Assembly (NCBI GenBank): GCA_964016885.1
Contig: OZ024755.1
Location: 8,742,001 to 8,806,000 of the forward strand
Reading direction: 5' to 3'
Length of the DNA: 64,000 nt
Source: Eledone cirrhosa
Taxonomy: Eukaryota
The position numbers were made by a program, and so were the translations under genes. Below the pieces are notes generated by a model. That model worked only from the letters and a program-made list of their open reading frames with translations, ran no database searches and had not been told where the DNA came from. This document shows, in pieces, positions 3,588-62,800 of this stretch. Position 1 is the first letter of the stretch, and each line of letters starts with the position of its first letter.

Positions 3588-3795
3588 GCGCACAAACTTA
3601 CTTTAAGTATGGTAGAAAAATTGTTTCACTTCCATCAAGCATATTGCAGATATTTGATAAAAAATGTGGCAATATATCAGATGATGGCATTGAAATAGAG
3701 AAGGTCAGAGTGTCGGTAATATATTTACTATGAATTACTATATAAGGTGGATCTTTACCGCTGCCGTTAACTTCACTCAGTCAAACATTATTACA

Positions 3796-3990
3796 GGGCA
3801 GTGAATTGGTAGTATAGAGGGTAGAGGGTTGGACGCCATGCTTTCCAGCATAGTTACGTCCTTTTACGGTCTGAGTTCAAATCGAGTCGAGGTTAACTTT
3901 GCTTTTCATCCTTACGGGGTCGATAAAATAACGTACCAGTAATGCACTGGGTATTTGCTGGGTTTGTGCCAAAAGTGGGAAACAATTATT
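3796..3990 (+). mobile_element. tRNA-derived SINE (dominant family, short-3' form)
   Basis: A-box-like TGGTAGTATAG, B-box GAGTTCAAATC, core GAGGTTAACTTTGC.TTTCATCCTTACGGGGTCGATAAAATA, ATT tail. Confidence 0.85.
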
Positions 3991-4029
3991 ACATGCAAAG
4001 AGTAATAAAAGTGAAGTGATAGGTATTGG

Positions 4030-4119
<90 letters not shown>

Positions 4120-4122
<3 letters not shown>

Positions 4123-4245
4123 ATAATAATAAATTTGAAAACTAAAATCCAAAGAGGGCTCGATAAGGATAAATATATATCAAATATATAAGAACTCTAG
4201 AGCAAATATTTATTAAAATAACATTTTATTTTAATATATATGTTA

Positions 4246-4252
<7 letters not shown>
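4120..4252 (-). mobile_element. Family A truncated copy (tail arm plus tiny inverted end) in (TA)n
   Basis: Reverse complement of about 4860-4958; flanked by (TA)n on both sides. Confidence 0.75.
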
Positions 4253-4685: not shown

Positions 4686-4749
<64 letters not shown>

Positions 4750-4803
4750 TAAAATAACAGATTAAAGTTTAAGCAAAGAATCGCTGCTTTAACCCTTAAC
4801 GGG

Positions 4804-4854
4804 AGTTTCAGAAGATCCCTATAAGAGTGAAAGCAGCGATTCTTTGCTTAAACT
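4804..4854 (+). ncRNA. Second family A HHR copy, stem II partly mutated, distal stem I 5' strand missing
   Basis: AGUUU CAGAAGA UCCCUAUAAGAGU GAAA GCAG cgauucu UUGCUU AAACU; direct repeat of 5268-5318. Confidence 0.55.
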
Positions 4855-5251
4855 TTAATCTGTATTTTAATAAATATTTGCTCTACGGTTCTTATATATT
4901 TGATATATATTTATCCTTATCGAGCCCTCTTTGGATTTTAGTCTTCAAATTTATTATTTTCTTTGCGTGCTATTGTTCTCCACGCTCCACATATGACTTA
5001 TTATCTTCGTTTTTTTCGTTCATTGCCAGAGAACGTCTCTATGCACCACCTAAGAGAACATTAGTCTACGACCTCTTTTATACCATAAACGTGGTTCTGT
5101 CTTTGCGCGTAATTGTTTTTCACCGCTCCTATTAATGACGTATTATTCGTTTTTTCCCGTTCTTTGCCAGCGAACGTCACCACGAACCAAAGTATCGTCT
5201 TCCTGTCTTCCTCCAGTTGCAACGTTTTTTGAAATATCCAGTTCTGCGTTT

Positions 5252-5327
5252 ACAGATTGACTTTGTTAGTTTCAGAAGATCCCGTTAAGGGTGAAAGCAG
5301 CGATTCTTTGTTTAAACTTTAATCTGT
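5252..5327 (+). ncRNA. Extended type I hammerhead ribozyme, variant core (CAGAAGA; family A)
   Basis: Distal stem I ACAGAUUGA (5252-60)/UUAAUCUGU (5319-27), 7-nt bulge, proximal stem I AGUUU/AAACU, core CAGAAGA (U4A), stem II (U)CCC guuaa GGG(U), GAAA, stem III AGCAG/UUGYU. Predicted cut after 5313 (CUU in other copies, UUU here). Confidence 0.65.
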
Positions 5328-5329
5328 TA

Positions 5330-5397
<68 letters not shown>

Positions 5398-6204: not shown

Positions 6205-6667
6205 ATAATCTGTTTGGATAACGCTATCTGTAAAGAGCTGCTTCGAACGCGACTATGATATCTACAGTTGTCATAATTCCAGTTTTTAATGCATATTTTT
6301 ATCTTCTCAAGGCTAATATCTTTCTTGTATCCTTCAGCATTCTAGGATAGATAAAACAGCTACCCTTGTGATACGGCTTCTACATAATCTAACATTGGCT
6401 TAACCAAAAGAAATTATTATAAATCTCATACCTGAAGCCTTGCGCCTATTTTAGAAATGATGGTTTGTACAGTGAATATTATGATTACTAAATTTTCTAC
6501 GGTCTGTTGTGTCTGAACAAGACCGGAGACACTACTTTTCTGGGTATATACGCAGTATCAAGCAGCACAGTCATATGTACGAGAGCAATTTGTTTTTGGG
6601 GGTCTATTTGCTTAGGATACTTTCTGTTTTATTGGTATCAAGCCTCAAAGCTCCTGTAATTATTATT

Positions 6668-6862
6668 GTGGATTGGCAGTATCGGTCCGGGTCGGACGCC
6701 ATGCTTTGACGCATAGAGTTACGGCCCTTGCCATTCTGAGTTCAAATCCGCAGAGGTTAACTTTGCCTTCATCCTTACGGGGTCGATAAAATAAAGTACC
6801 AGTAATGCACTGGGTAATTGCTGGCCTTGTGCCAAAAGTAGAAACAATTATTATTATTATTA
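6668..6862 (+). mobile_element. tRNA-derived SINE
   Basis: Near full-length copy with (ATT)n tail. Confidence 0.9.
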
Positions 6863-7227: not shown

Positions 7228-8337
7228 TAATTCCACCTGTCACACATTATTTCTAGTAATATTTTGCATTTCAGTATGATACCTTCTTTTGTTAAACATT
7301 TTGCTTTGTTGCTTTCAGCAATCTTTTCTTCCCTTCTTCCAATAAATGTTACCATGATTCATTCATCATCGTTCAATCTTCTATCTTCTACTTATAATAT
7401 ACACATATGTGTATATTTGGGTAGCTAATGATCTCCAATTTGAAATGGAATCCGTGTGGGAAACATTGTACACATACACATGGTATATTCATTTCACTGT
7501 GTAACTATGAAATAACATTGCCTGGAACTGTTACCAATTTATGAACAGTCTTTTGGCTAGCTTTATTAGTTGGGAAGATATATAAATAAAATTGGCAAGC
7601 ATTTTAAAAAATGTGTTTTTGTTTTCCTTTCCATTGAATTGTTGTTGAACTTGTTATTGTTGTTGTATATTCTCTACCGTATTAAAATATGCATATATAT
7701 GTATTTGTATATCAATATATCAAACATAAGTTATTTTATCACGGATATACTGAAATTCTCAATAAAGGATACCTATAAATACCACTTATACATATATAAT
7801 TATATAATTATATCAATAATTATATATATATATATATATATTTGTGTGTGTGTCTGTGTGTCTGTGTGTTTGTGTGTATGTGTGTATGTGTATGTGTGTG
7901 TGTGTACGAATAATGAAACTATGGTTATATTAAGACTCAAGATTAAAGTTCAAAACTTACAAGATGATACAAAAATCGAAGATGCATCTGACCTCGCACG
8001 AATTAATTGAGAGGATCGCATTTTCTCATGCCAGCTCTTGCAACAGAAAATAAATAAACATATCTGTTGGTATGATGATGTTTGATGAGAACAACACTGA
8101 CCAAACAAAAGAGAGCGAGAACGTGTCAGTAGTTGAAAGGAAGTAATGGTGAGTAGCGTGTCAGTAACTGAAAGGAATGGTATATCTTTATGGCGGAAGG
8201 AGCAGGAATCGAAGTGACAGTAGTAGCATCAAGCGTGAGAAGGGACAAGTGAAAGTAGGAGAGGGAGAGAGAGAGAGAGAGAGAGGAAGGAAGGAAGAAA
8301 TGTTAATATATATATATATATGATTATTCTTTATAAT

Positions 8338-8522
8338 TGTCTCTACCTTAGGCACAAGGCCAGCAATTACCCAGTGCATTACTGGTACTTTATTTTATCG
8401 ACCCCGTAAGGATGAAAGGCAAAGTCAACCTCGGCGGCATTTGAACTCAGATCGTAAAGGGACGTAACTATGCTGGAAAGCATGGCGTCCGACCCTCTAC
8501 TGATACTGCCAATCCCCCGCCC
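8338..8522 (-). mobile_element. Full-length tRNA-derived SINE with 16-bp TSD
   Basis: TSD GATTATTCTTTATAAT at 8322-8337 and 8523-8538. Confidence 0.92.
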
Positions 8523-15064: not shown

Positions 15065-15298
15065 ATTAAAATTACAGATTAACGTTTAAGCAAAGAATCG
15101 CTGCTTTCACCCTTAACGAGATCTGAGTTTCAGAAGATCCTGTTAAGGGTAAAAGCAGCGATTCTTTGCTTAAACTTTTATCTTTTATTCTGTTATTTTA
15201 ATAAATATTTGCTCTATGGTTTTTATATATTTGGTATATATTTATCCTTATCGAGCCCTCTTTGGATTTTAGTCTTCACATTTATTATTATTAGTAGT
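15065..15298 (+). mobile_element. Family A copy (inverted short arm + long arm); HHR has a G12A change
   Basis: 15065-15124 is inverted. From 15126 the sequence is AGTTTCAGAAGATCCTGTTAAGGGTAAAAGCAGCGATTCTTTGCTTAAAC, followed by the family A tail. Confidence 0.8.
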
Positions 15299-20427: not shown

Positions 20428-20509
<82 letters not shown>

Positions 20510-20524
20510 GCACATAAACACACA

Positions 20525-20604
20525 TATGTGTGTATGTATATATGTTTCAGTGTCTTCATGAGAATGTATCTACACACCTATATATATATAAAATCTACGT
20601 AATC

Positions 20605-20656
<52 letters not shown>

Positions 20657-20725
20657 GATTTTATATATGTAGGTGTGTAGATACATTCTCATGAAGACAC
20701 TGAAACATATATACATACACACATA
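20525..20725. repeat. Inverted duplication (~70-bp arms) around a (TA)n tract
   Basis: 20525-20597 is nearly the exact reverse complement of 20655-20725. Confidence 0.85.
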
Positions 20726-21399
20726 CGTATATATATACATATATATACATACATACATAAATATATACATACTTACATATATGTACACACATACACTAAT
20801 ATACATATACTCACACATAAATACACACATACTTATATACAATTCACAGACACATTCTTACCTATATACACACACTTACATACATAATTGCGTATATACA
20901 TACATATATACATACATATATACATACATATATACATACATACACGTACATACTTACACACATACTCACATATATACCTACATACATACATATATACATG
21001 CACACATACACATATACATACATACATCTGTATGTATGATTTATTGCTGTAAATCTTCAAATTGTTTGCAACATATTACAATTAAACATTTCTTTTTAAC
21101 ATTTAAGCTTATTTTCTGCACCAACACAACCCCACGCCATAAGTATGTGCTCTTGCACACACATACACTCACACTAACACACACAAACACCACTCCTCTA
21201 TGCAAGTCTCTCTCTCACTTTCCCTTCCCCTCTCTCTCAGTCTCTCTCTCTCTCTCACTGTCTACATAGTTCTCTTGATTTCTCTTCCCCCCTACCACAT
21301 CTTAATATATATTTATTTTAATACCCAATCCGTTTAATACTCCAATAGAACGAATCAACCATTTGATTTGTTTGAACATGAAGCATTATTTTTCTTCAT

Positions 21400-21434
<35 letters not shown>

Positions 21435-21895
21435 TAATAATAACATCAACATCATCATCATCATCATCGATAACAACATTAGTATCATTATCATCATCAT
21501 CATGATTTCTATTTTGCGGTATCTACATAGTTTCCTGGGTGGTGAACAGCTGTGGTGGTCGTCTTTTTCAAAGTCGTAGACATGGGTAAATCAAATACCA
21601 AGAAAAGGTGACCACCTTCCCAGGAACCATTCAATGTAGACAAATGGCTCAAATGTAGAATAGCGGAAGCTAAAAATAAAACACCGCCGCCAAATTAAAA
21701 CACAAACGGCCTGATATTTTTGTTTGAGACCCCAAATTAAAAAACATATTCACGGTTGTAGACATCGGCTGCCTACTCGATGTCAATGTGGTAAAAGAAA
21801 CTACAAAAGAAGGAGTGAACCTACAGATTATTGATGAAGAGTTTGCACATCTTCTACCCAAGATACACATTCATTTTGGTAGCTATTATTATTGG

Positions 21896-22072
21896 TTGGC
21901 AGTATCGGTAGAGGGTCGGACGCCATGCTTTGAAGCATAGAGTTACCTCCCTGTATGATCTGAGTTCAAATCCCGCCGAGGTTAACTTTGCCTTTCATCC
22001 TGACGAGGTCGATAAAATAAAGTACCAGTAATGCACTGGGTAATTGCTGGCCTTGCGCCAAAAGTAGAAACA
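21896..22072 (+). mobile_element. tRNA-derived SINE with 11-bp TSD
   Basis: ATTATTATTGG at 21885-21895 and 22073-22083. Confidence 0.9.
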
Positions 22073-23963
22073 ATTATTATTGGAGTTACAGGATATATAC
22101 TAAACCGCCTGGACCAAAGTATGACTGATCAGTACCTCCTTTATCTATAACGTACCTCCTTGATCCATAAGCTCAAAAGGCCGTGACATCTTGATCCTTC
22201 GAAACTTATAAACAATTCGTACAATACAAAGGATTAAATCTTGCACAAGGGACGATGAACATTTCCTTTTCTTTACAACCTTGCCACCGGGAAATTGTTC
22301 AGTCTAAATTAAATTCAAAATTATGAGAAAGAGAAATGCATAAATACATGCACGCATACATGCATACATAGATGCATGCATACATACATACATACATACA
22401 TACATACATACATACATACATACATACATGCATACATACATATATACATATACACATACATAGATCCATACATATATAAATACATACAGACATACATACA
22501 TAAATACATACACCTTACGTCGTATATATTTTCATTCTTCGAGAATTAAAAGACGTTTGTTCTTGCTGAACTTTGATGCGATAAGTGGAGAATGAATGAA
22601 CAAGAAAGTTAACTGATACCCATAGAAGATATAGCTTTACAATAGAACTAAGCAGCTATCTTAGTGTAATCATTAATATCATTATTTCTCGCCGCGTAGA
22701 AGATTTCTCGATAATGCAGTAAGGACACGAATGAAGTTCACATTGCAATGGAGAATTAAGTAAGGTAGAATACGATAAAAATCATTTAATTTATATTTAA
22801 TTAGAAAGCAACCAAAGGTAATTATTTGAACAGTAACTAACACTCAGATCAGAGTATATTTGCATTTCTTGTGTGGATTATATCTAAATGGTTTTCTGGT
22901 GGTTTGTACGAGATACAAAAGAGATAAAGTGAAAATAAATTCATAATGGAATTTTACACAAATTTAAAGTTGTATTAAGGTTAGATATTTTGTTGTTTCT
23001 GTTATAAATTTCTTCAATATATTTGTTTGTGTGTGCGCGTGCATGTGTGTATGGGGGCGTGGAGGTGTACGTGTTTGTGTGTAGTGTGAGTACAGGTTAG
23101 TATACGTTTTTACGTCACAGCTTATGTATTGTATTTCAGCTATGTATCTGTAAAATTCAGAAGGATTGCCATATCTCTATTTATGATCACCGTTACACAT
23201 GGTATCAAGTAAGTGCCTGAGTTCCAATGATGGAGATAGCCTCTTTGTGGCTGTTTCATCTGCTAGATATAGTAGCTAATTGCCACAACATTCTAAACTA
23301 AGGATTTAGCTTTATTGGCACTCAAGTTGTAATGCAATCCAGGATACATATAGAAACAAAATACTATTTTTTAACAAAGCCACAAACCTTTTGAAGAAAA
23401 TGTATGCGATTCTTAATTCGTTTCATGCTATAAGGAAATGGCACAAACTGAGATGTTTGGCTATATGGGTTTACTATATAAGATTGTCTGTGAACACAGC
23501 ATGGCCAAATAGACAAGAGATTCGCTTCGTAATCGTTACCTTATGAGGGTAAACCCACAGCGCGTGATCTTCTACAAGTGTTATTTATAATAGCCTCGAG
23601 TCGACGCATACCTTATGATTGAATCGTAACTGAGGTAATCTATTTAGAAGCCCGTGGGACCGACAGTACACATTATCATTCTGACAGTACACATTATCAT
23701 TCTGAAGTTCCCTCACAATTACGTTAAGGTTACACATCTGTGTGATATGCCCAATCATGTACACATTATGTTCATAAATCAGGGTCTTCCGTTGATTGAA
23801 CAACTTGAAGGTTCATCATTGAAACTGACGGATATCCGTCGATATCTATTAATATTGTTCTTTGATATCAATTATATTATTAGATCTAGTAAGTATTATC
23901 AAAGTATTCAAGCGATTTATTGTTTAAAGTGCACATATATAGAGAACAAATGTTAATACAGTG

Positions 23964-25833: not shown

Positions 25834-26015
25834 GGGGCGGTGAATTGGCAGTATCGGTAGAGGGTCGAACATGCTTTACAGCATAGTTACGTCCCTTTAC
25901 GATCTAAGTTCAAATCTTGCCGAGGTTAACTTTGCCTTTCATGCTTACGGGGTCGATAAAATAAAGTACCAGTAATGTGCTGGGTAATTGCTGGCCTTGT
26001 GCCAAAACTAGAAAC
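25834..26015 (+). mobile_element. Full-length SINE with 19-bp TSD (2 mismatches)
   Basis: AATATTTATTTCTTTCGTT (25815-33) / AATATTTACTTCTATCGTT (26016-34). Confidence 0.9.
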
Positions 26016-26398
26016 AATATTTACTTCTATCGTTTACAATGTCAAACATCCGCCTTCTCTTACTCCGTTGGGACGGTGCCAGTACGAAATATTCAGAAGT
26101 TAGGGGCTCACAAACACCCACACACATGCATATATATATATATATATGTGTGTGTATGTGTATATATATATATATATATATCCAAATGTGTACACACAGT
26201 TAAGAGTATATGTATATACGCATGTAAACATACATATATGTATTCATATATAAACAGATGCATGTACGAGAGTAAACGATATAGTTGCAATAGTTGTTCA
26301 TTACATGCTGTGATTCCATAAAAGATGCAAAATAATGATAAGGAGACCAACACATAGTAATAGTTGCGTAGGCGTTCATATCTGTAAAAACCAATTTA

Positions 26399-26794: not shown

Positions 26795-26797
<3 letters not shown>

Positions 26798-27018
26798 TAT
26801 TGAAGTTTCCGTTGAAAATTGAAAACGTCATAGGAGTGAAGAGTGCTCTATGTAAGTTACAGAGCTAAATTTAATGTATAATAAACAATACAATATAATT
26901 AGCTCATTACCAGAGGTTTCCCGAATAAGACGAACGACTGAGGACGTTTCTTGTATTCGTCTTATTCTGGAAACCTCTGGTAATGAGGTAATTATATTGT
27001 ATCGTTTATTATACATTA
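26795..27018 (-). mobile_element. Family B foldback PLE-like element with HHR 3' half
   Basis: Arms 26872-26934 and 26956-27018; tail 26795-26871. GAAACCTC tggtaat GAGGTA (26970-26990) forms a 5-bp stem III plus GUA. (TA)n on both sides. Confidence 0.7.
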
Positions 27019-27129
27019 TATATATATATATATATATATATACCAACACTGTTTGTACTACACTCATCGTTATTGTGTTTGTTTTCTTGTTTTTAACTTC
27101 TACATATATATATACACACACAAAATATA

Positions 27130-27214
27130 CAAAGAGGGCTAGATAATTTCGAAAGATCCCGTTAGGGGTGACAGCAACGATTCTTTGCTTAAACTTGAAT
27201 CTGTTATTTTCATA
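27130..27214 (+). mobile_element. Family A degenerate or rearranged fragment
   Basis: CAAAGAGGGCTAGATAA (inverted tail piece) is joined to GATCCCGTTAGGGGTGACAGCAACGATTCTTTGCTTAAAC...CTGTTATTTT, then (TA)n. Confidence 0.65.
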
Positions 27215-27287
27215 TATATATATATATATATATATATTCATTCCTGTATATTGATCTGGACAATGGATATGTCTAGAGCAGTATACA

Positions 27288-27323
<36 letters not shown>

Positions 27324-28240
27324 ATAACAGATTATATATATATATATATATATATAGTTATATATTTATTTATTCTTTATATCTATGAAGTTGGAGGATT
27401 TATCAAGTAGTATGGTAATACAGGTGAATTTACTGAAGTTTATGTCTGTTTACCATGATTACCTATCAGTTATTCTCTACATGATTATGGCTAAAGGGAT
27501 ATAGGACAATATATTTCGATGTTGCTAAACATATTAATAACATACTGGCGGTCTTTAAGTCATGTTACTAATATTGATCTTAATACAGATAAAATATCTA
27601 TCTATTTCATATCCAAACAGCATAGATTATTCTCAATAGTAATTTTTCGTTGCCATAACTACAGAGGCAACTTCAAGCATGGTCGCGTTCTTTTTATATT
27701 GACAAATAAACTCTAGAACGCTTGACTACAGTTAACTCATGCTTCATCAGTTACCTTAGCATTGGATTGTCAGGTTGTCATAGCAGCAGATATCAAGTTG
27801 ACATCATAATTAACTCTGCAAAGATATGGACAGGATATCCCGGATGTCATTGCTAGATTCCCATTAGCTTTTTTTTCCGTACATATTTCTCTCATACACA
27901 TTGTAGTAAATACTCATCGCTGTTGCTGTTATCAGTAGCATCATTAAACTCAATAAGATGCACCAGAGCTGAATAATTAGCTTCGCTCGCTCGCATATAT
28001 AAGGACCACAGTTCGATCTTTTACCATAGTCTTAGATCGATTCAAGCTTTGAATATGGAATTGAGTACACGGTAATTGTTTGGAAGGGTTGTACTTGTAA
28101 TAATTCAAAGAGACAGCCATTCCACACAATGGCAGTATTTTTCCGTTACGAAAATATATTTTTCTTCGACGGCATGGCTACCCATATCTTTATAGTTCGT
28201 AAACGTTTAATATGTATATATATGTATATATATATATTTA

Positions 28241-29022: not shown

Positions 29023-29025
29023 TAT

Positions 29026-29211
29026 CAGAATGGCGGCTGTGAAAATCAGTTAGACCATTATTCACCAGAGTACTCGGTACTTGGAGTAGTAGAGTGGGTA
29101 ATATGAAAACATTCAGGATCCCGACGGCTGAGCTCCTGCCGTTTCAACATCTAGATTCGGATCTAGCTGTTGAAATGGCAGAAGCTCAGCCATTCGGTTC
29201 CTGAATTTTTT

Positions 29212-29215
<4 letters not shown>
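29026..29215 (-). mobile_element. Family C foldback PLE-like element
   Basis: Hairpin centred at CTAGAT-TCGG-ATCTAG. Minus strand reads GAAACGGC aggagctca GCCGTC. Tail shared with 32045-32123. Confidence 0.75.
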
Positions 29216-31684: not shown

Positions 31685-31855
31685 TAGGAAAAGGTTCAGG
31701 AATCCGACGGCAGATTTCAAACCGTTTCGACGGCTATTTCTTGAGCTCTGCCGACGGGGTCCTGAACTTTTCCTATTACCCACTCTACTACCCAAATTAC
31801 CGAGTACTCTGGTGCGTTATGGTCCACCTGGTTCCTTACCACACTTCCTTCGTTA
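31685..31855 (+). mobile_element. Family C element (short inverted arm + long arm)
   Basis: Homologous to 32045-32247 in the opposite orientation; TA-flanked. Confidence 0.8.
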
Positions 31856-32044: not shown

Positions 32045-32047
<3 letters not shown>

Positions 32048-32247
32048 CGAAGGAAATGTGGTAAGGAACTAGATGGACCATAACGCACCAAAGTACTCAA
32101 TACTTAGGGTAATAGAGTGGGTAATAGGAACGAGTAGGACCCCGACGGCTGAGCTCAAGCCGTTTCGACGGCTAATTCTGGACCCAGTGTCCAGAATTAG
32201 CCGTCGAAGCGGCTTGAGCTCAGCCGTCGGGGTCCTACTCGTTCTTA
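32045..32247 (-). mobile_element. Family C element with a near-perfect 60-bp hairpin and HHR 3' half
   Basis: Arms 32124-32183 and 32189-32248 (2 mismatches), loop CCAGT. Minus strand 32166-32144 is GAAACGGC TTGAGCTCA GCCGTC (stem III plus GUC). Tail 32045-32123. Confidence 0.85.
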
Positions 32248-33616
32248 TATATATATATATATATATATATATGCGTATGTTTGTTTGTGTTTATGTTCCA
32301 CAGGAATTTGTGTTTCATTCTTACAGTATCCCTAAAATAATATACCAGTCATGAACTGAGGTTCATTTATTATCTTTACCCTTCCTCAAAATCTGTTGGC
32401 CTTTCATCTAAATTTGAAATTAATATCATATAATAGAGATTAATAGATTATCTGAGTGATAAGCAGCATGATCATAAATACAGGTAGCCCATTGTCAGTC
32501 GACACTAACATGTCCACATGTACAATCATGAGTCATTGCATCAAAAGTGAATCTTTCACTCTCTCGCCCTCTTTGTCTCTCCCTCTCTCTCTATCTCTAT
32601 CTCAATGCCTTTCTCTCTCTCTCCCTCTTTCTACCTCTCTCTCACTCTCTCTCTCTCTCTCTCTCTCAGTCTTCTACTGCTTTCTGCCCTAATCTGTTGT
32701 GATTCAGCTGAAGGTATCAATTTGCATTTAAGCACATCCGTATCATATCTCATAAACAGTCTCCTCTGATTTCTTGAAACGAGAGACAAATTTAAGCCGA
32801 GTATTTAGTTATATTGCTGACCGAGTTTTCTCCAATATTACAGTTTTCACTGTAGAAATACCTATTCTTTGGTAACAAGCCTGTTTCCCTCAATCACAGA
32901 GTTTGACAACCTTTACACTCTTAAGAAGTATTTTTAGATTAAATATTTTCAATTAAAATTACAGTCAATTATTTGTTCCAGCAACAGTATTTATTATATT
33001 TTAAAAATACTTACAACAAAGAATGGATTTAGCTAAAAAAGAATTTCTTACTCAATGCAATTGAATCTTATCTGAAATTGTTTCAATATCTGTATCGACC
33101 GGTTCCTTTTAGCGTCGGTTACGGTCGAAACATTTAGTTTCCTCGGACACAAAACTGCTGGTTTGGTCTGTAAAATCGGGAAAACAGTAGTGTTTTATTA
33201 AAGAACATGCTAGATACTATCTCTTCCTTATTGATCGTATGGATATGTGTGCCCGTTGTGCCAGCGGTGTGTTGGTGATTGGTGTGTTTTGGTAGGGCAT
33301 CTGACTGGGCGCTCTGGATGTTGTTGTTAAGTAGTAAATCGTTTCTCTTTCCCATTTTTTTTTTAATGAAAGTTTAATGTATTATGCTTCTATGCAAATA
33401 AAGGAAATTATGTATGTTTGACTAAGTCATAATTGATCGATTCTCGTAGTGTTTGATATGACGAAATATCTTTGCATTATTCATATAGATGAACTGAAAT
33501 TCTTTGATATGAACTAAACAATTCGATTCAAACGTGAGGTGGTCTCTCTATATAAACATATAAATCTATGTATCTCTCCCCTTCTATCTCTCTATATATA
33601 TAGTTACATACATATA

Positions 33617-36285: not shown

Positions 36286-36462
36286 AACAAAGAAGGTGTG
36301 ATACGATACCAGGTGGAGCATAACGCACCAGAGTACTCGATACTTAGGGTAATAGAATGGGTAATAGGAAAAGAGTCAAGACCCCGACGGCTGAGCTACG
36401 GCCGTTTCGACAACTGGATCAAAACGCCCGGAGATCAGCCGTCGGGGTCCTGATTCTTTTCC

Positions 36463-36464
<2 letters not shown>
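36286..36464 (-). mobile_element. Family C element
   Basis: Same tail and GACCCCGACGGCTGAGC...CAGCCGTCGGGGTCC foldback; TA-flanked. Confidence 0.8.
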
Positions 36465-36501
<37 letters not shown>

Positions 36502-41994: not shown

Positions 41995-42881
41995 TTATAC
42001 ACGAACTACTGAGCAAATAATACTTGGTATCAATGGGTTAAAGATGTCAAATCAATTAGTGGTTAAGGCGGTATACACCCATACACACACACACATATAT
42101 ATATGTATATATACAGGTATATATATTGAGTGAGTGTGAAAGGCCAAAGGTCCTTATTGAAAGTCACTGATTTCACAAAATACACGCAAATGATTTAGAA
42201 GTCGACCCTAAGTCAGAGCAATAAGATTAAGAAGGATATGAACACCACAACACTTTGTTTTCAAAATTTTGAAAGTAGGTTTATAAGTATGAATTTTCAT
42301 AACGCTTTCGTAGTTGTCTCTGTGGCCTAGTGGTAGGTACTAGAGACGGTGGAGATCCTGACCTTGGGTTCAATCCTGGTCAAGCGGTACATGTAACCAT
42401 TTTCTATTTTTATTTTACAACCAATAGAAAAAAAACTGAAAAGGTTTACTGGGAACCCTACTCCCCACCAGGATCGAACTTCAGACCAGGTTCGCCACAG
42501 TCTATGATTCCTCAAACTAGGCCACTGAGACAGCTACAAAATTACGATGAAAATTGATAATGATAAACCTACTTTCAAAATCAAAGTTAAAAAGATGTGG
42601 TGTCGTTCATAGCTTTTTTTTTTGGAGCTATTAGTAACATTTATGCTCGACTTTTGGTCATTACTGAAAGTCTCTGGATTTCGCAAAATACATAATATTT
42701 TTTTTATTGGGGAAGGTAAGATGATTTTCTGCAAAAATTTGATTCCACTGTTTTGTTTCCACTTTTGTATTTTTCGAAAATGTTATTCATTCATTATAAA
42801 AATTAAATGATATCATTCTATATGTAGGTGGGCTCCCTTCATCTCCTGGCAACCCCTATGTTTAGACCCAGTCCGCCACTG
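41576..42881. mobile_element. Non-autonomous hAT-like DNA transposon
   Basis: Perfect 14-bp TIRs CAGTGGCGGACTGG (41576-89) / CCAGTCCGCCACTG (42868-81). 8-bp TSD CCCCTAGG / TCCCTAGG (1 mismatch). No transposase ORF. Confidence 0.8.
42238..42610. repeat. ~370-bp imperfect foldback whose arms each contain a tRNA-like head
   Basis: Left GTCTCTGTGGCCTAGTGGT...GGGTTCAATCCTGGT. Right (-) GTCTCAGTGGCCTAGTTTG...AAGTTCGATCCTGGT. About 75 bp of upstream flank is also inverted-homologous. Confidence 0.7.
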
Positions 42882-46130: not shown

Positions 46131-46323
46131 GGGGCGGTGGAGTGGCAGTATCAGTAGAGGGTCGGACGCCATCCTTTGCAGCATAGAGTTATAGCCCTTG
46201 CCATTCTGAGTTCAAATCCCGCCAAGGTTAACTATGCCTTTCATCCTTACGGGGTCGATAAAATAAAGTACCAGTAATGCACTGGTAAATGCTGTCCTTG
46301 TGCCAAAAGTAGAAACAATTATT
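46131..46323 (+). mobile_element. Full-length tRNA-derived SINE
   Basis: Starts GGGGCGGTGG; has A/B boxes, core and ATT tail. Confidence 0.9.
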
Positions 46324-46857
46324 TCAATTTTTCCTTTACAAATACATACAAAATTGTATATTTCTGTTCAACAACGAATATATATGATTATATTTAAATC
46401 TGTCGAGGTAGAGCTTGGCTGCTCTATCGAGGAAGTTTGGCTGCCTTTTATTGAGGGCGAGAAAACACGTAGGAGTTTCCCTTTTATTATTGGTCGAATT
46501 TGTTATTGTTCAAATTAAACTTTCATCTTTCCAGGGATAAATACAGCGTGAGTATGTGAAACATACATTGATTTACTAGACAAAACATTCTTCTCAACAA
46601 AATATATCGCTATGTGTAACATAGAAATCAATACGGACTGATCGTAATACATATCAAGACAATAAGATTATTCGGTCTATTAACCTCCTGTTTAGAGATA
46701 AAACATTTCAAATATTTATATGTATATTACACTCTGGTTCGCTCGGTTTCACCAACGTTCATCATCGAATAAAACACTTGATGTTGATCAGAGATCAAAC
46801 CAATTGAAACGTGCAATTTTATACACACACAGATATATACACATATATAGATATATA

Positions 46858-47166
46858 TATAATATAGAAGATCAAAAGATGATTAAAAGAGTTCCAAGTA
46901 TTTTATTATGCGCATTTCAAAAACAAATATCATCATGCGATGACATTTGTGTTTTCGTCAGATAAAATAGGGAGACATGATACGAAGGTTAAAAAACACT
47001 TGTGAATAGTGCAGTTTTAAATCAACGTAATCAAAATACATGGAACTCTTTTAACCATCTTTTGATCTTATATATTATTTATACTCCAGTCCTACACACT
47101 GTAGAGTGCTACTTATCCGATATCTGCATTGCTTTATTGTACTACAATAAAACTCACACCTCCTAC
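46858..47166. mobile_element. Family F element carrying the canonical HHR
   Basis: Inverted arms about 46858-46906 and 47028-47079; ~90-bp tail to 47166; TA-rich flanks. Confidence 0.75.
46899..46969 (-). ncRNA. Type I minimal hammerhead ribozyme with canonical core (family F)
   Basis: Minus strand reads UAUUUUAU-CUGACGA-[AAACACAAAUGUCAUC gcau GAUGAUAUUUGUUUUU]-GAAA-U GCGC A-UA/-AUAAAAUA. This gives an 8-bp stem I, an intact CUGANGA/GAAA core, a ~16-bp stem II with one mismatch, a very short stem III with a palindromic GCGC loop, and an AUA cleavage triplet (cut between 46907 and 46906). It matches the minimal HHRs described in Penelope-like elements. Confidence 0.85.
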
Positions 47167-47205
47167 ATATATATCTATATCTATATATATATATATATAT
47201 ACATA

Positions 47206-47260
<55 letters not shown>

Positions 47261-47264
<4 letters not shown>

Positions 47265-47514
47265 ATAATAATAAATTTGAAGACAAAAATCCAAAGAGGG
47301 CTCGATAAGGATAAATATATATCAGATATATAAGAACCGTAGAGCAAATATTTATTAAAATAACAGATTAAAGTTTAAGCAAAGAATCGCTGCTTTCACC
47401 CTTAATGAAACAGTTCTAGTCCTGTAGAAGCTCTTCTATATTAAAACTTTTATACTCTTCTATGTATTGAGTACTTTACTTACTGTGGTTACCGCCGATT
47501 GAGCCCGGAATAAG

Positions 47515-47516
<2 letters not shown>
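47261..47516. mobile_element. Chimera of a family A arm (-) and a different HHR-family arm (+)
   Basis: 47261-47405 is the reverse complement of family A up to the stem II loop. 47407-47426 is GAAACAG ttctagtc CTGTA (stem III plus GUA), followed by an unrelated tail. (TA)n on both sides. Confidence 0.65.
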
Positions 47517-55680: not shown

Positions 55681-55688
<8 letters not shown>

Positions 55689-55823
55689 ATAAATAAGTCA
55701 AATATTTAAAATTTAAATATTTGACTTATTTTACATTACTCCGGAGTTACCAAACCAGCCTGCGCACTTCGTCGAGTGCTCCAATCTGTATACTGAGGTG
55801 TCGGTAAACAACCAACATATACT

Positions 55824-55826
<3 letters not shown>
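55681..55826 (+). mobile_element. Family G small foldback plus tail in (TA)n
   Basis: Perfect 20-bp inverted repeat 55691-55710 / 55712-55731, followed by a ~95-bp tail, between TA arrays. Confidence 0.5.
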
Positions 55827-55870
<44 letters not shown>

Positions 55871-59140: not shown

Positions 59141-59390
59141 TCGTTTCTGAATTTGTTTAGCAAGATTCTTTATCTGAAAACGTGTGTTGAAACCGATATT
59201 GTTATACTTTGGAAGGGTTATGTTGCCAATAAGAAACACACGCACCACATGCTTTCACTTCAATTTATTATAATAAATTTATAAATTTATAAATTCCTAA
59301 ATTTATAAATTTATTATAATAAATTAAAGCGAAGCAACTGGTGCGTGTGTTTCTTATTGGCAACATGACCCTCCCAAAGTATAACAATAT
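59141..59390 (-). mobile_element. Family D foldback element (same architecture, no canonical NUH)
   Basis: Arms about 59196-59280 and 59305-59390 with an AT-rich centre; 55-bp tail 59141-59195; TA-flanked. A related end occurs at 55865-55890. Confidence 0.7.
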
Positions 59391-59620: not shown

Positions 59621-59685
59621 CAGTTTTCGGCGAAAGATGGCGAAAGGCCGGGGCTCAGCCGTCGGGGATCCTGACTCTTTTCCTA
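59621..59685 (+). mobile_element. Family C short-arm fragment
   Basis: GCTCAGCCGTCGGGGATCCTGACTCTTTTCCTATA, followed by TA. Confidence 0.65.
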
Positions 59686-60326
59686 TATATATATAATATT
59701 AAGGATACTATTTATAGTTATGTATATTTTAAACTATAAACAGGGAAGGTCAGTAATTTATTACTACCTTAAGCCAGTAAGGCCCAGTAAGATAAGTAGC
59801 TCAATGTAATAACATCAGTTGTTCTACAGAGCAGTTATATAGAATTCACAAGAATCAAAAAATACCCTACCACTACAACCACCATAATACTCTTGCTTAC
59901 CCGCTTAAAGTGGTTGCGTTATATGTAACACCTTGCCACCCAATAATCGTATATAAATGAGACACACTTGCATGCTCCATGTGTGACTAACGCATACACT
60001 ATCTACTATATCTGATTATCAAACTATCCTCTTACATTATCTGTGTTATCTGCCGCATGTATTTTAATTTTTATTTAATTTTAATTTTAATTTTAATTTT
60101 AATTTTAATTTTGATTTTGATTTTAAATTTGAATTGGTGTACAAATATAGTATAGTATAATATATGTCACTCCACTGTACATCAATATATATATATGTAT
60201 CTGTATGTCTCTTGCGTTGGATAGGAGGTCAATTATATGTACAAGCATTGAAAAATGCTCCGAAGTCTCCAAGTGAATAAATGCTTTGAACATAGCTTTG
60301 ATTCTTGTGAATTCTCTCTCTCTCTC

Positions 60327-62297: not shown

Positions 62298-62800
<503 letters not shown>

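Follow-up and report, generated by a model that had tools for sequence, protein, structure and literature searches.

Arm ends of putative Penelope-like inverted stubs cluster just upstream of the hammerhead GAAA in a stretch of Eledone cirrhosa DNA

Nucleotides 32046-32248 of the window, i.e., of the whole 64-kb stretch of Eledone cirrhosa DNA analysed here, form a head-to-head stub in a (TA)n repeat, which adjoins the unit at both ends. The stub contains a palindrome with 60-nt arms (32124-32183 and 32189-32248; 58 of 60 positions matched, two mismatches) and the 5-nt loop CCAGT at 32184-32188, where the first-pass annotation of this DNA had placed it. Throughout, positions are counted on the element sense strand from +1, the G of the hammerhead GAAA, -1 being the preceding base, and the arm that carries the tail is termed the long arm, the inverted one the short arm. 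Both arms of the palindrome begin at -17 and run in the same order through 17 nt, GAAA, a 5-bp stem III, the GUC cleavage triplet and the 3' strand of stem I. The mirrored part of the long arm (32124-32183, minus strand) thus harbours the 3' half of a type I hammerhead between 32166 and 32144, with GAAA at 32166-32163, the 5-bp stem III and GUC as the NUH triplet. From there the long arm extends 78 nt further to 32046; this one-sided tail (32046-32123, minus strand, +44 to +121) represents its 3' end, abuts (TA)n and terminates identically in the related copies at 31686 and 36286. The short arm (32189-32248, plus strand) covers -17 to a fixed end at +43, also abuts (TA)n, and has its GAAA mutated to GAAG. 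The 5-nt junction insert does not derive from what naturally lies upstream in this family; its first four letters, which reverse-complement the adjoining CTGG, suggest a local templated patch.

The family to which this stub belongs, termed C, is very abundant and comprises four two-armed copies and one solo short arm in the window; the short end lies at +43 in each of them. The same end is fixed in sequencing reads, 3575 of which (run X12, see below) pass into the TA repeat at 32124. In the unit at 31686-31854 (plus strand) the short arm reaches to about -13 and the long arm begins at +8, within stem III; the short arm carries sequence that is missing from its long arm. Two further units on the minus strand belong to a second subfamily: one at 29024-29215, with the long arm at about -12 and the short arm at about -15, and one at 36286-36465, with the long arm at about -12 and the short arm at -2. 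The solo short arm at 59641-59686 (plus strand) begins at -1, and a small patch of mirrored, duplicated sequence lies before it. None of the five copies in the window carries the CUGANGA core, and since no copy with a complete ribozyme is at hand for family C or family B, stem II of these families is undefinable from the window alone. As separate observations, a natural 6-bp hairpin centred on the family's own GAAA (32157-32172) competes with stem III, a number of arms start on the 3' side of this hairpin (+3 to +9), and the sense strand has an open frame of about 47 codons.

Family A possesses a complete hammerhead. In the reference copy (5250-5336, plus strand) the 5' strand of stem I (5268-5272), the core CAGAAGA (5273-5279), the stem II region (5280-5292) and GAAA (5293) are followed by stem III, UH and the 3' strand of stem I, such that the full motif spans 5268-5320, with the core at -20 to -14 and the stem II region at -13 to -1. 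The core with its U4A change is found in three copies (5273-5279, 4809-4815, 15131-15137) and is probably the family A state. Upstream sequence of the reference copy reaches back to 4959, and the segment 4959-5250 includes a direct repeat of ~145 nt that has diverged, and no recognised ORF. In the unit at 4742-4958 (plus strand) the short arm stops at -13 and the long arm, which begins at -25, retains the core; the direct copy 4959-5336 follows, yielding a partial tandem. In a similar unit at 15066-15296 (plus strand) the short arm extends to -16, and the long arm, starting at -25, again includes the core. At 27120-27210 (plus strand) the long arm is cut at +90 in the tail and the short arm starts at -26, and the junction of the unit at 4118-4250 (minus strand) falls downstream of the ribozyme at +33/+33, the short arm occurring twice with TA in between. 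The proposal that inversion leaves the insertions ribozyme-dead by truncation fails in this family, as the long arms at 4803 and 15124 start at -25 and include both stem I and the core; for family C, whose own sequence has no core nearby, it is unsupported. The short end of family A also recurs tail to tail around a separate palindrome with 21-bp arms at 27199-27333.

The remaining hammerhead-bearing units involve other families. At 47196-47515 a family A long arm, which ends at -8 (47405) in family A loop II, is joined to an unrelated family with a hammerhead half, which begins at 47407, at most 5 nt before its own GAAA. Both arms of the family B unit (26796-27016, minus strand) end at -14 and are separated by a 21-nt spacer. 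This spacer contains CTGAGGA at 26938, contrary to the claim that family B has lost such letters; as a candidate family B core the motif was rejected, since it has no matching stem I or II and the likeness between loop and arm end is low. In the family F unit (62370-62699) both arms end at -62 around a 71-nt spacer composed of two hairpins; the hammerhead of this family is minimal, with a palindromic stem III and a core shortened in both arms. The family G unit (46860-47077, minus strand) includes a complete hammerhead whose 16-bp stem II was read through by one arm; the start of the other arm falls somewhere from -2 to about +12. This hammerhead (46890-46975, minus strand) features an 8-bp stem I, a palindromic stem III and an unusually long stem II of 16 bp, and for the segment z is -4.4. 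The hammerhead is complete in family G, complete with U4A in family A, and reduced to the 3' half in families B and C. All hammerhead variants were judged by eye against published layouts.

Other palindromes and repeats are scattered over the window. A palindromic unit at 59196-59390 has a 60-nt centre consisting of a run of repeated AT-rich mini-palindromes, and a TA-flanked unit at 55683-55835 starts with a 20-nt mirrored stretch and lacks any hammerhead part. All counts exclude the palindromes at 59196-59390 and 55683-55731, in which no valid hammerhead half was found. The segments 20507-20736 and 27199-27333 are inverted duplications centred on or enclosing TA runs, and 42266-42581 is a diverged 316-nt palindrome with tRNA-like arms. 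Moreover, a dispersed SINE-like family of about 200 nt (3787-3993, 6661-6862, 8331-8522, 21884-22081, 25834-26039, 46131-46341 and others) shows up to 14 mutual matches.

The architecture of the hammerhead units suggests that they belong to the endonuclease-bearing (EN+) Penelope-like elements (PLEs), for which inverted 5'-truncated copies and one-sided tails are standard (PMC8557442; PMC3846280). The window units are inverted 5'-truncated copies with a one-sided tail, they bear the hammerhead motif in what corresponds to the pseudo-LTR, and they are inserted in (TA)n or AT-rich sites; both unit flanks are TA repeats, which mask any target-site duplication. In the passages compared, published EN+ PLE insertions (PMC8557442 Fig. 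2; PMC3846280) have the same head-to-head pseudo-LTR ends, one-sided tails and (TA)n targets, as well as the same kind of partial tandem (here 4742-5336) and palindromes at the inverted junction. In contrast, the tails here measure 78 nt in families C and B and 94 nt in family A, instead of 30-40 nt, and the units are 130-600 nt long with no ORF. The 140 open frames searched, of 146 with at least 55 aa in the window, gave no PLE RT or GIY-YIG match, and such stubs would lack these parts. A Pfam search returned four sub-threshold, unrelated hits only. Rfam reported no hammerhead on the two complete motifs, nor among the best 150 of 292 whole-window matches, which were microsatellite-driven miRNA only, and pattern scans for families C and A gave no match in viral, genome and metagenome collections.

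Family A resembles the hammerheads of the Hydra clade, including Hydra-1_Obim (the part of PMC8557442 File S2 compared), in the order of the core, an unpaired T, a short stem II, T and GAA; this clade also inserts in (TA)n, but the family A core differs (CAGAAGA, U4A). Eight short motifs of families A, C, F and G were not found in the portion of the PMC8557442 supplement searched, and hence the families here appear not to be the ones listed there. A non-LTR retrozyme origin was rejected, because the units are dispersed and inverted rather than tandem complete hammerheads (as defined in the relevant part of bioRxiv 10.64898/2026.07.22.740005).

The ends of the arms are not uniformly distributed. 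A homology search identified 21 arms of families A and C, distributed over 13 units, and we compared all of their ends with a null of uniform ends from the 3' end back to -50. Eleven of the 21 arms end at -17 to -1, where 3.2 are expected (P ~7e-5), and 14 end at -27 to -1. When one arm per unit is counted, 6 of 13 fall at -17 to -1 (P 0.006) and 9 of 13 at -27 to -1 (P 0.0004). Seven arm ends were placed by eye and differ from the local aligner (e.g., 4803 short arm, -13 versus -22; 36415 long arm, -12 versus -3); with the aligner's end positions the counts are 10 and 14 of 21. The clustering in families A and C is real. Among the 12 head-to-head units with a hammerhead half, both ends lie at -17 to -1 in five, one end in three and none in four, a tally in which the family G partner arm is ambiguous (-2 to +12).

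The first-pass annotation had placed such junctions upstream of GAAA in stem II and had named a uniform distribution of breakpoints as the outcome that would speak against it; in the window the breakpoints are non-uniform. The junctions it cited besides 32184-32188 (29158, 36415, 26935-26955, 4803, 15124 and 47405) exist about where it put them. These seven are a selection from the 12 units, all belonging to units with both ends or one end at -17 to -1, and five units were omitted, namely 31740 (long arm +8), 4223 (+33/+33), 27145 (+90/-26), 62498-62570 (-62/-62) and 46860-47077. The position upstream of GAAA holds, but the assignment to stem II does not: only 2 of 12 family A arms end in true stem II (-13 to -1; 1.4 expected, P 0.41, in a small sample). 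Three of the 12 start at -25, -25 and -26, where 0.4 are expected in a window chosen post hoc, and retain the core; among the other arms, five stop downstream of the ribozyme, one stops within the core and one reaches -334. The stop zone coincides with an AG that closes a U-rich tract (5257-5269) in family A and with TTAG at -20 to -17 in both family C subfamilies. An acceptor-like U-rich tract ending in TTAG, which lies at -24 in family A, is thus found at the arm-end hot spots of two unrelated families, A and C.

Whether the hairpin at 32184-32188 corresponds to the natural stem II of family C was addressed with four public runs, which were aligned to 32046-32215 at 80% likeness and yielded 16,699 contigs (X1), 23,231 raw reads (X12), 8 contigs (X4) and 5 contigs (X8). 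This read evidence concerns family C only; for families A, B, F and G the evidence consists of the copies within the 64-kb window. If the hairpin were natural, depth should carry on through its 17 bp. Instead, X12 depth drops from 2678 (32178-32183) to 43 (32184-32189) and 7 (32190-32195), i.e., 0.2% continue, and X1 depth drops from 1.22 M (32178-32183) to 47 k and then 38 k (32190-32195), i.e., 3% continue. A fall of X12 depth at 32177 was rejected as biology, since 7236 molecules end there at an AATT restriction cut. Past 32183 the loose ends are AT-rich and start with TAAAT or AAAAT (plus strand) in all four runs; their consensus is supported by at least 127 contigs and 1100 reads with an agreement of 0.45, and in the other two organisms by 1 and 2 contigs. 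No CUGANGA occurs in the 30 loose-end letters beyond -17 (to -47; the core could sit further upstream), where -17 is also the homology limit of the family C reference used for the reads. The second subfamily departs at 32174, and its X1 consensus enters a TA repeat 12 letters on, at about -20. A very long natural stem II of family C centred at about -42 was considered on account of a 10-nt palindrome in three loose ends; the window gave no match to it above chance.

Because the reads reveal an AT-rich natural upstream sequence and not a mirror, the 32184-32188 hairpin is a product of the inversion and not the natural stem II of family C. The idea put forward in the first-pass annotation, namely that the cDNA folds back on the stem II of the ribozyme and that the junction centres represent loop II, is thus refuted for that locus, where no natural stem exists. 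In general, we regard it as highly improbable. In its favour, the ends cluster where the 3' strand of stem II would lie, 47405 falls in family A loop II, the loose-end consensus of the second family C subfamily may form a weak hairpin (by eye) with 29158 in its loop, and families B and F are judged without their natural upstream sequence. Yet, the family A arms show no excess in stem II, which is a stem of 3 bp with a predicted cDNA fold of -1.8 kcal/mol, and the long stem II of family G, the strongest in the window, was copied through. Failing at its founding locus, the stem II model adds no mechanism. What stands of that proposal is that the units are inverted stubs of PLE type, that some junctions are exactly symmetric and that spacers bear marks of local fold-back synthesis.

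The crucial question is whether one or two cDNAs underlie a unit. A folded-back cDNA copies only its own content, and therefore a short arm that reaches further upstream than the long arm cannot be its copy, barring later deletion. This arrangement is present in 3 of 8 two-armed A/C units, namely at 31740 (-13 versus +8), 27145 (-26 versus +90) and 29158 (-15 versus -12), and in all 12 listed opposite-strand read joints (long arm ends +20 to +87, short arm starts -2 to -18), five of which lie at the alignment edge 32130 and seven away from it. These read-derived joints are the best-supported ones, a selection that gives no unbiased rate. The long arm is equal or reaches further, as snap-back would permit, in 5 of 8 A/C units and in 3 of 5 rows of a second read-joint table, and 2 of 8 A/C units have exactly symmetric junctions. 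X1 rows with centres at 32184-32191 sum to 122 contigs, with possible double counting; the AATT cut in X12 masks symmetric junctions with an intact AATT, and contigs break at palindromes. Arms within a copy are 0.79-0.95 alike, compared to a mean of 0.72 between copies, and the own partner is nearest in 4 of 4 cases, with one tie. Finally, the junction inserts are short and apparently copied from nearby (the 32184-32188 loop, the second read-joint table, the family F spacer), which points to local fold-back, as patching or as priming, on chance pairs rather than on stem II.

We lean, with modest confidence, towards two separately primed cDNAs that are joined at their truncated ends. The stubs would be the 5'-truncated ends (pseudo-LTR plus tail) of EN+ PLEs in (TA)n. 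Both nicked target strands would prime a cDNA, one at the tail start and the other at the short start, on templates from one source, either a single RNA with its two pseudo-LTRs or a pair of associated RNAs. Both cDNAs would tend to end some 1-27 nt before GAAA, at the ribozyme's 5' edge, whereupon host end-joining enzymes would connect their 3' ends head to head, using 0-2 nt of microhomology or inserting a short stretch templated by neighbouring sequence; the central hairpin would be the outcome of this join. Rather than stalling on a stem, we favour as the cause of the stop that the RNA-cDNA hybrid is lost once synthesis enters the U-rich tract that closes with TTAG, or that a short template RNA has its 5' end there. 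Pairing of rU with dA is weak and would explain a stop at a U-rich tract simply.

Priming on both strands is suggested by analogy with Poseidon of Anolis (PAc), whose protein nicks and extends both target strands in vitro; two RT start sites bound the tail, the protein is a predicted dimer, and ribozyme cleavage is not needed in vitro (PMC11167929, parts compared). The two fixed 3' ends of the stubs match these two start sites and thus support the two-cDNA reading, and AT-rich targets are shared as well. PAc differs in clade and host, and 5' junctions and inversions lie outside the study parts compared (PMC11167929). Twin priming of L1 similarly extends two target ends by RT and subsequently joins them, and two-RNA inserts occur; yet, L1 arms copy adjacent, nearly non-overlapping parts of the RNA, and the arms of the stubs copy the same terminal segment (PMC11702581, passages compared).

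Several features fit the joining of two cDNAs less well. Symmetric junctions are commoner than two independent stops easily give, all the more if the spacers of families B and F are not natural, and the likeness of each arm to its own partner is explained most simply by a single folded cDNA. The junction at 4803 matches the register of a weak core-centred fold (4 of 6 pairs, by eye), and the fixed short end could stem from the endonuclease cutting a hairpin intermediate (PMC8557442, part compared). The symmetry and the arm likeness speak for generic self-priming, whereby one cDNA stops in the zone, folds back on a few chance pairs outside stem II and is extended along itself, and the endonuclease cuts the hairpin at the fixed short end. 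Such a course of events, rather unlikely in our view though to be reckoned with, also accounts for the exact symmetry at 32184-32188, at 4223 and in families B and F, and for the hairpin-rich spacers in family F and at 59260-59320. It was proposed in 2013 from junction palindromes of Penelope (PMC3846280), and cDNA snap-back occurs at R2 5' junctions (PMC11371274); in the parts of these reports and of PMC11331408 compared, the same fold-back of a cDNA 3' end gives an inverted 5' junction, with no tie to a hammerhead stem, whereas the inverted arm here has a fixed end and often exceeds the long arm. For self-priming, both this excess (3 of 8 units, the 12 listed joints) and the two-family join need extra steps, and the predicted fold leaves the cDNA end at 32183 without a pairing partner unless the insert is present.

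Palindrome centres are known to be unstable, and the units might have been longer or perfect palindromes at birth, the centres of which were trimmed and patched by host repair, such that the present positions reflect survival of GC-rich arms. The arms indeed halt where GC-rich sequence meets an AT-rich tract, and the centres bear deletions and patches; however, solo non-palindromic ends share the zone (the second family C subfamily at about -20 in X1 contigs, 59641 at -1), and the two-family join was never palindromic, which renders later remodelling distinctly improbable. It is scarcely credible that the palindromes are fold-back artefacts of assembly or library preparation. Library chimeras can yield perfect-looking palindromes, and no aligned piece covers this exact stretch, but the arms are mismatched at 2 of 60 positions here and diverge by as much as 21% in other units, the fixed ends and one-sided tails are seen repeatedly, and similar centres are found in independent contigs. 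Quite unlikely, too, is a variant in which the stop zone is a real RNA boundary: short RNAs would start or be spliced there, a dimeric RT would prime both strands, stubs of 150-250 nt would be the regular product, and the CUGANGA half of family C would lie beyond an intron. If so, the family C ribozyme would form only after splicing. The intron of D. virilis Penelope terminates where helix I begins (PMC4209133, passage compared), yet a spliced first exon in family C is argued against by the inserts after -17, which share no common sequence.

Inverted copies, tails and self-priming have already been published, and a 2014 study noted pairs of hammerheads on opposite strands at distances of 100-700 bp (PMC4209133, passage compared). 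A mapping of PLE junctions onto the hammerhead was found neither in the passages of PMC8557442 and PMC3846280 compared nor elsewhere in the literature searched, a scope outside of which lie most subscription papers, older Penelope work and supplements; the same applies to the hot spot of arm ends. A genome with many thousands of short stubs per family constitutes a natural data set to distinguish two-strand priming from self-priming as the mechanism of PLE 5' inversion. The clustering of 5' ends is real and merits counting across the genome; it provides a measurable handle on the start of the template RNA or on RT drop-off.
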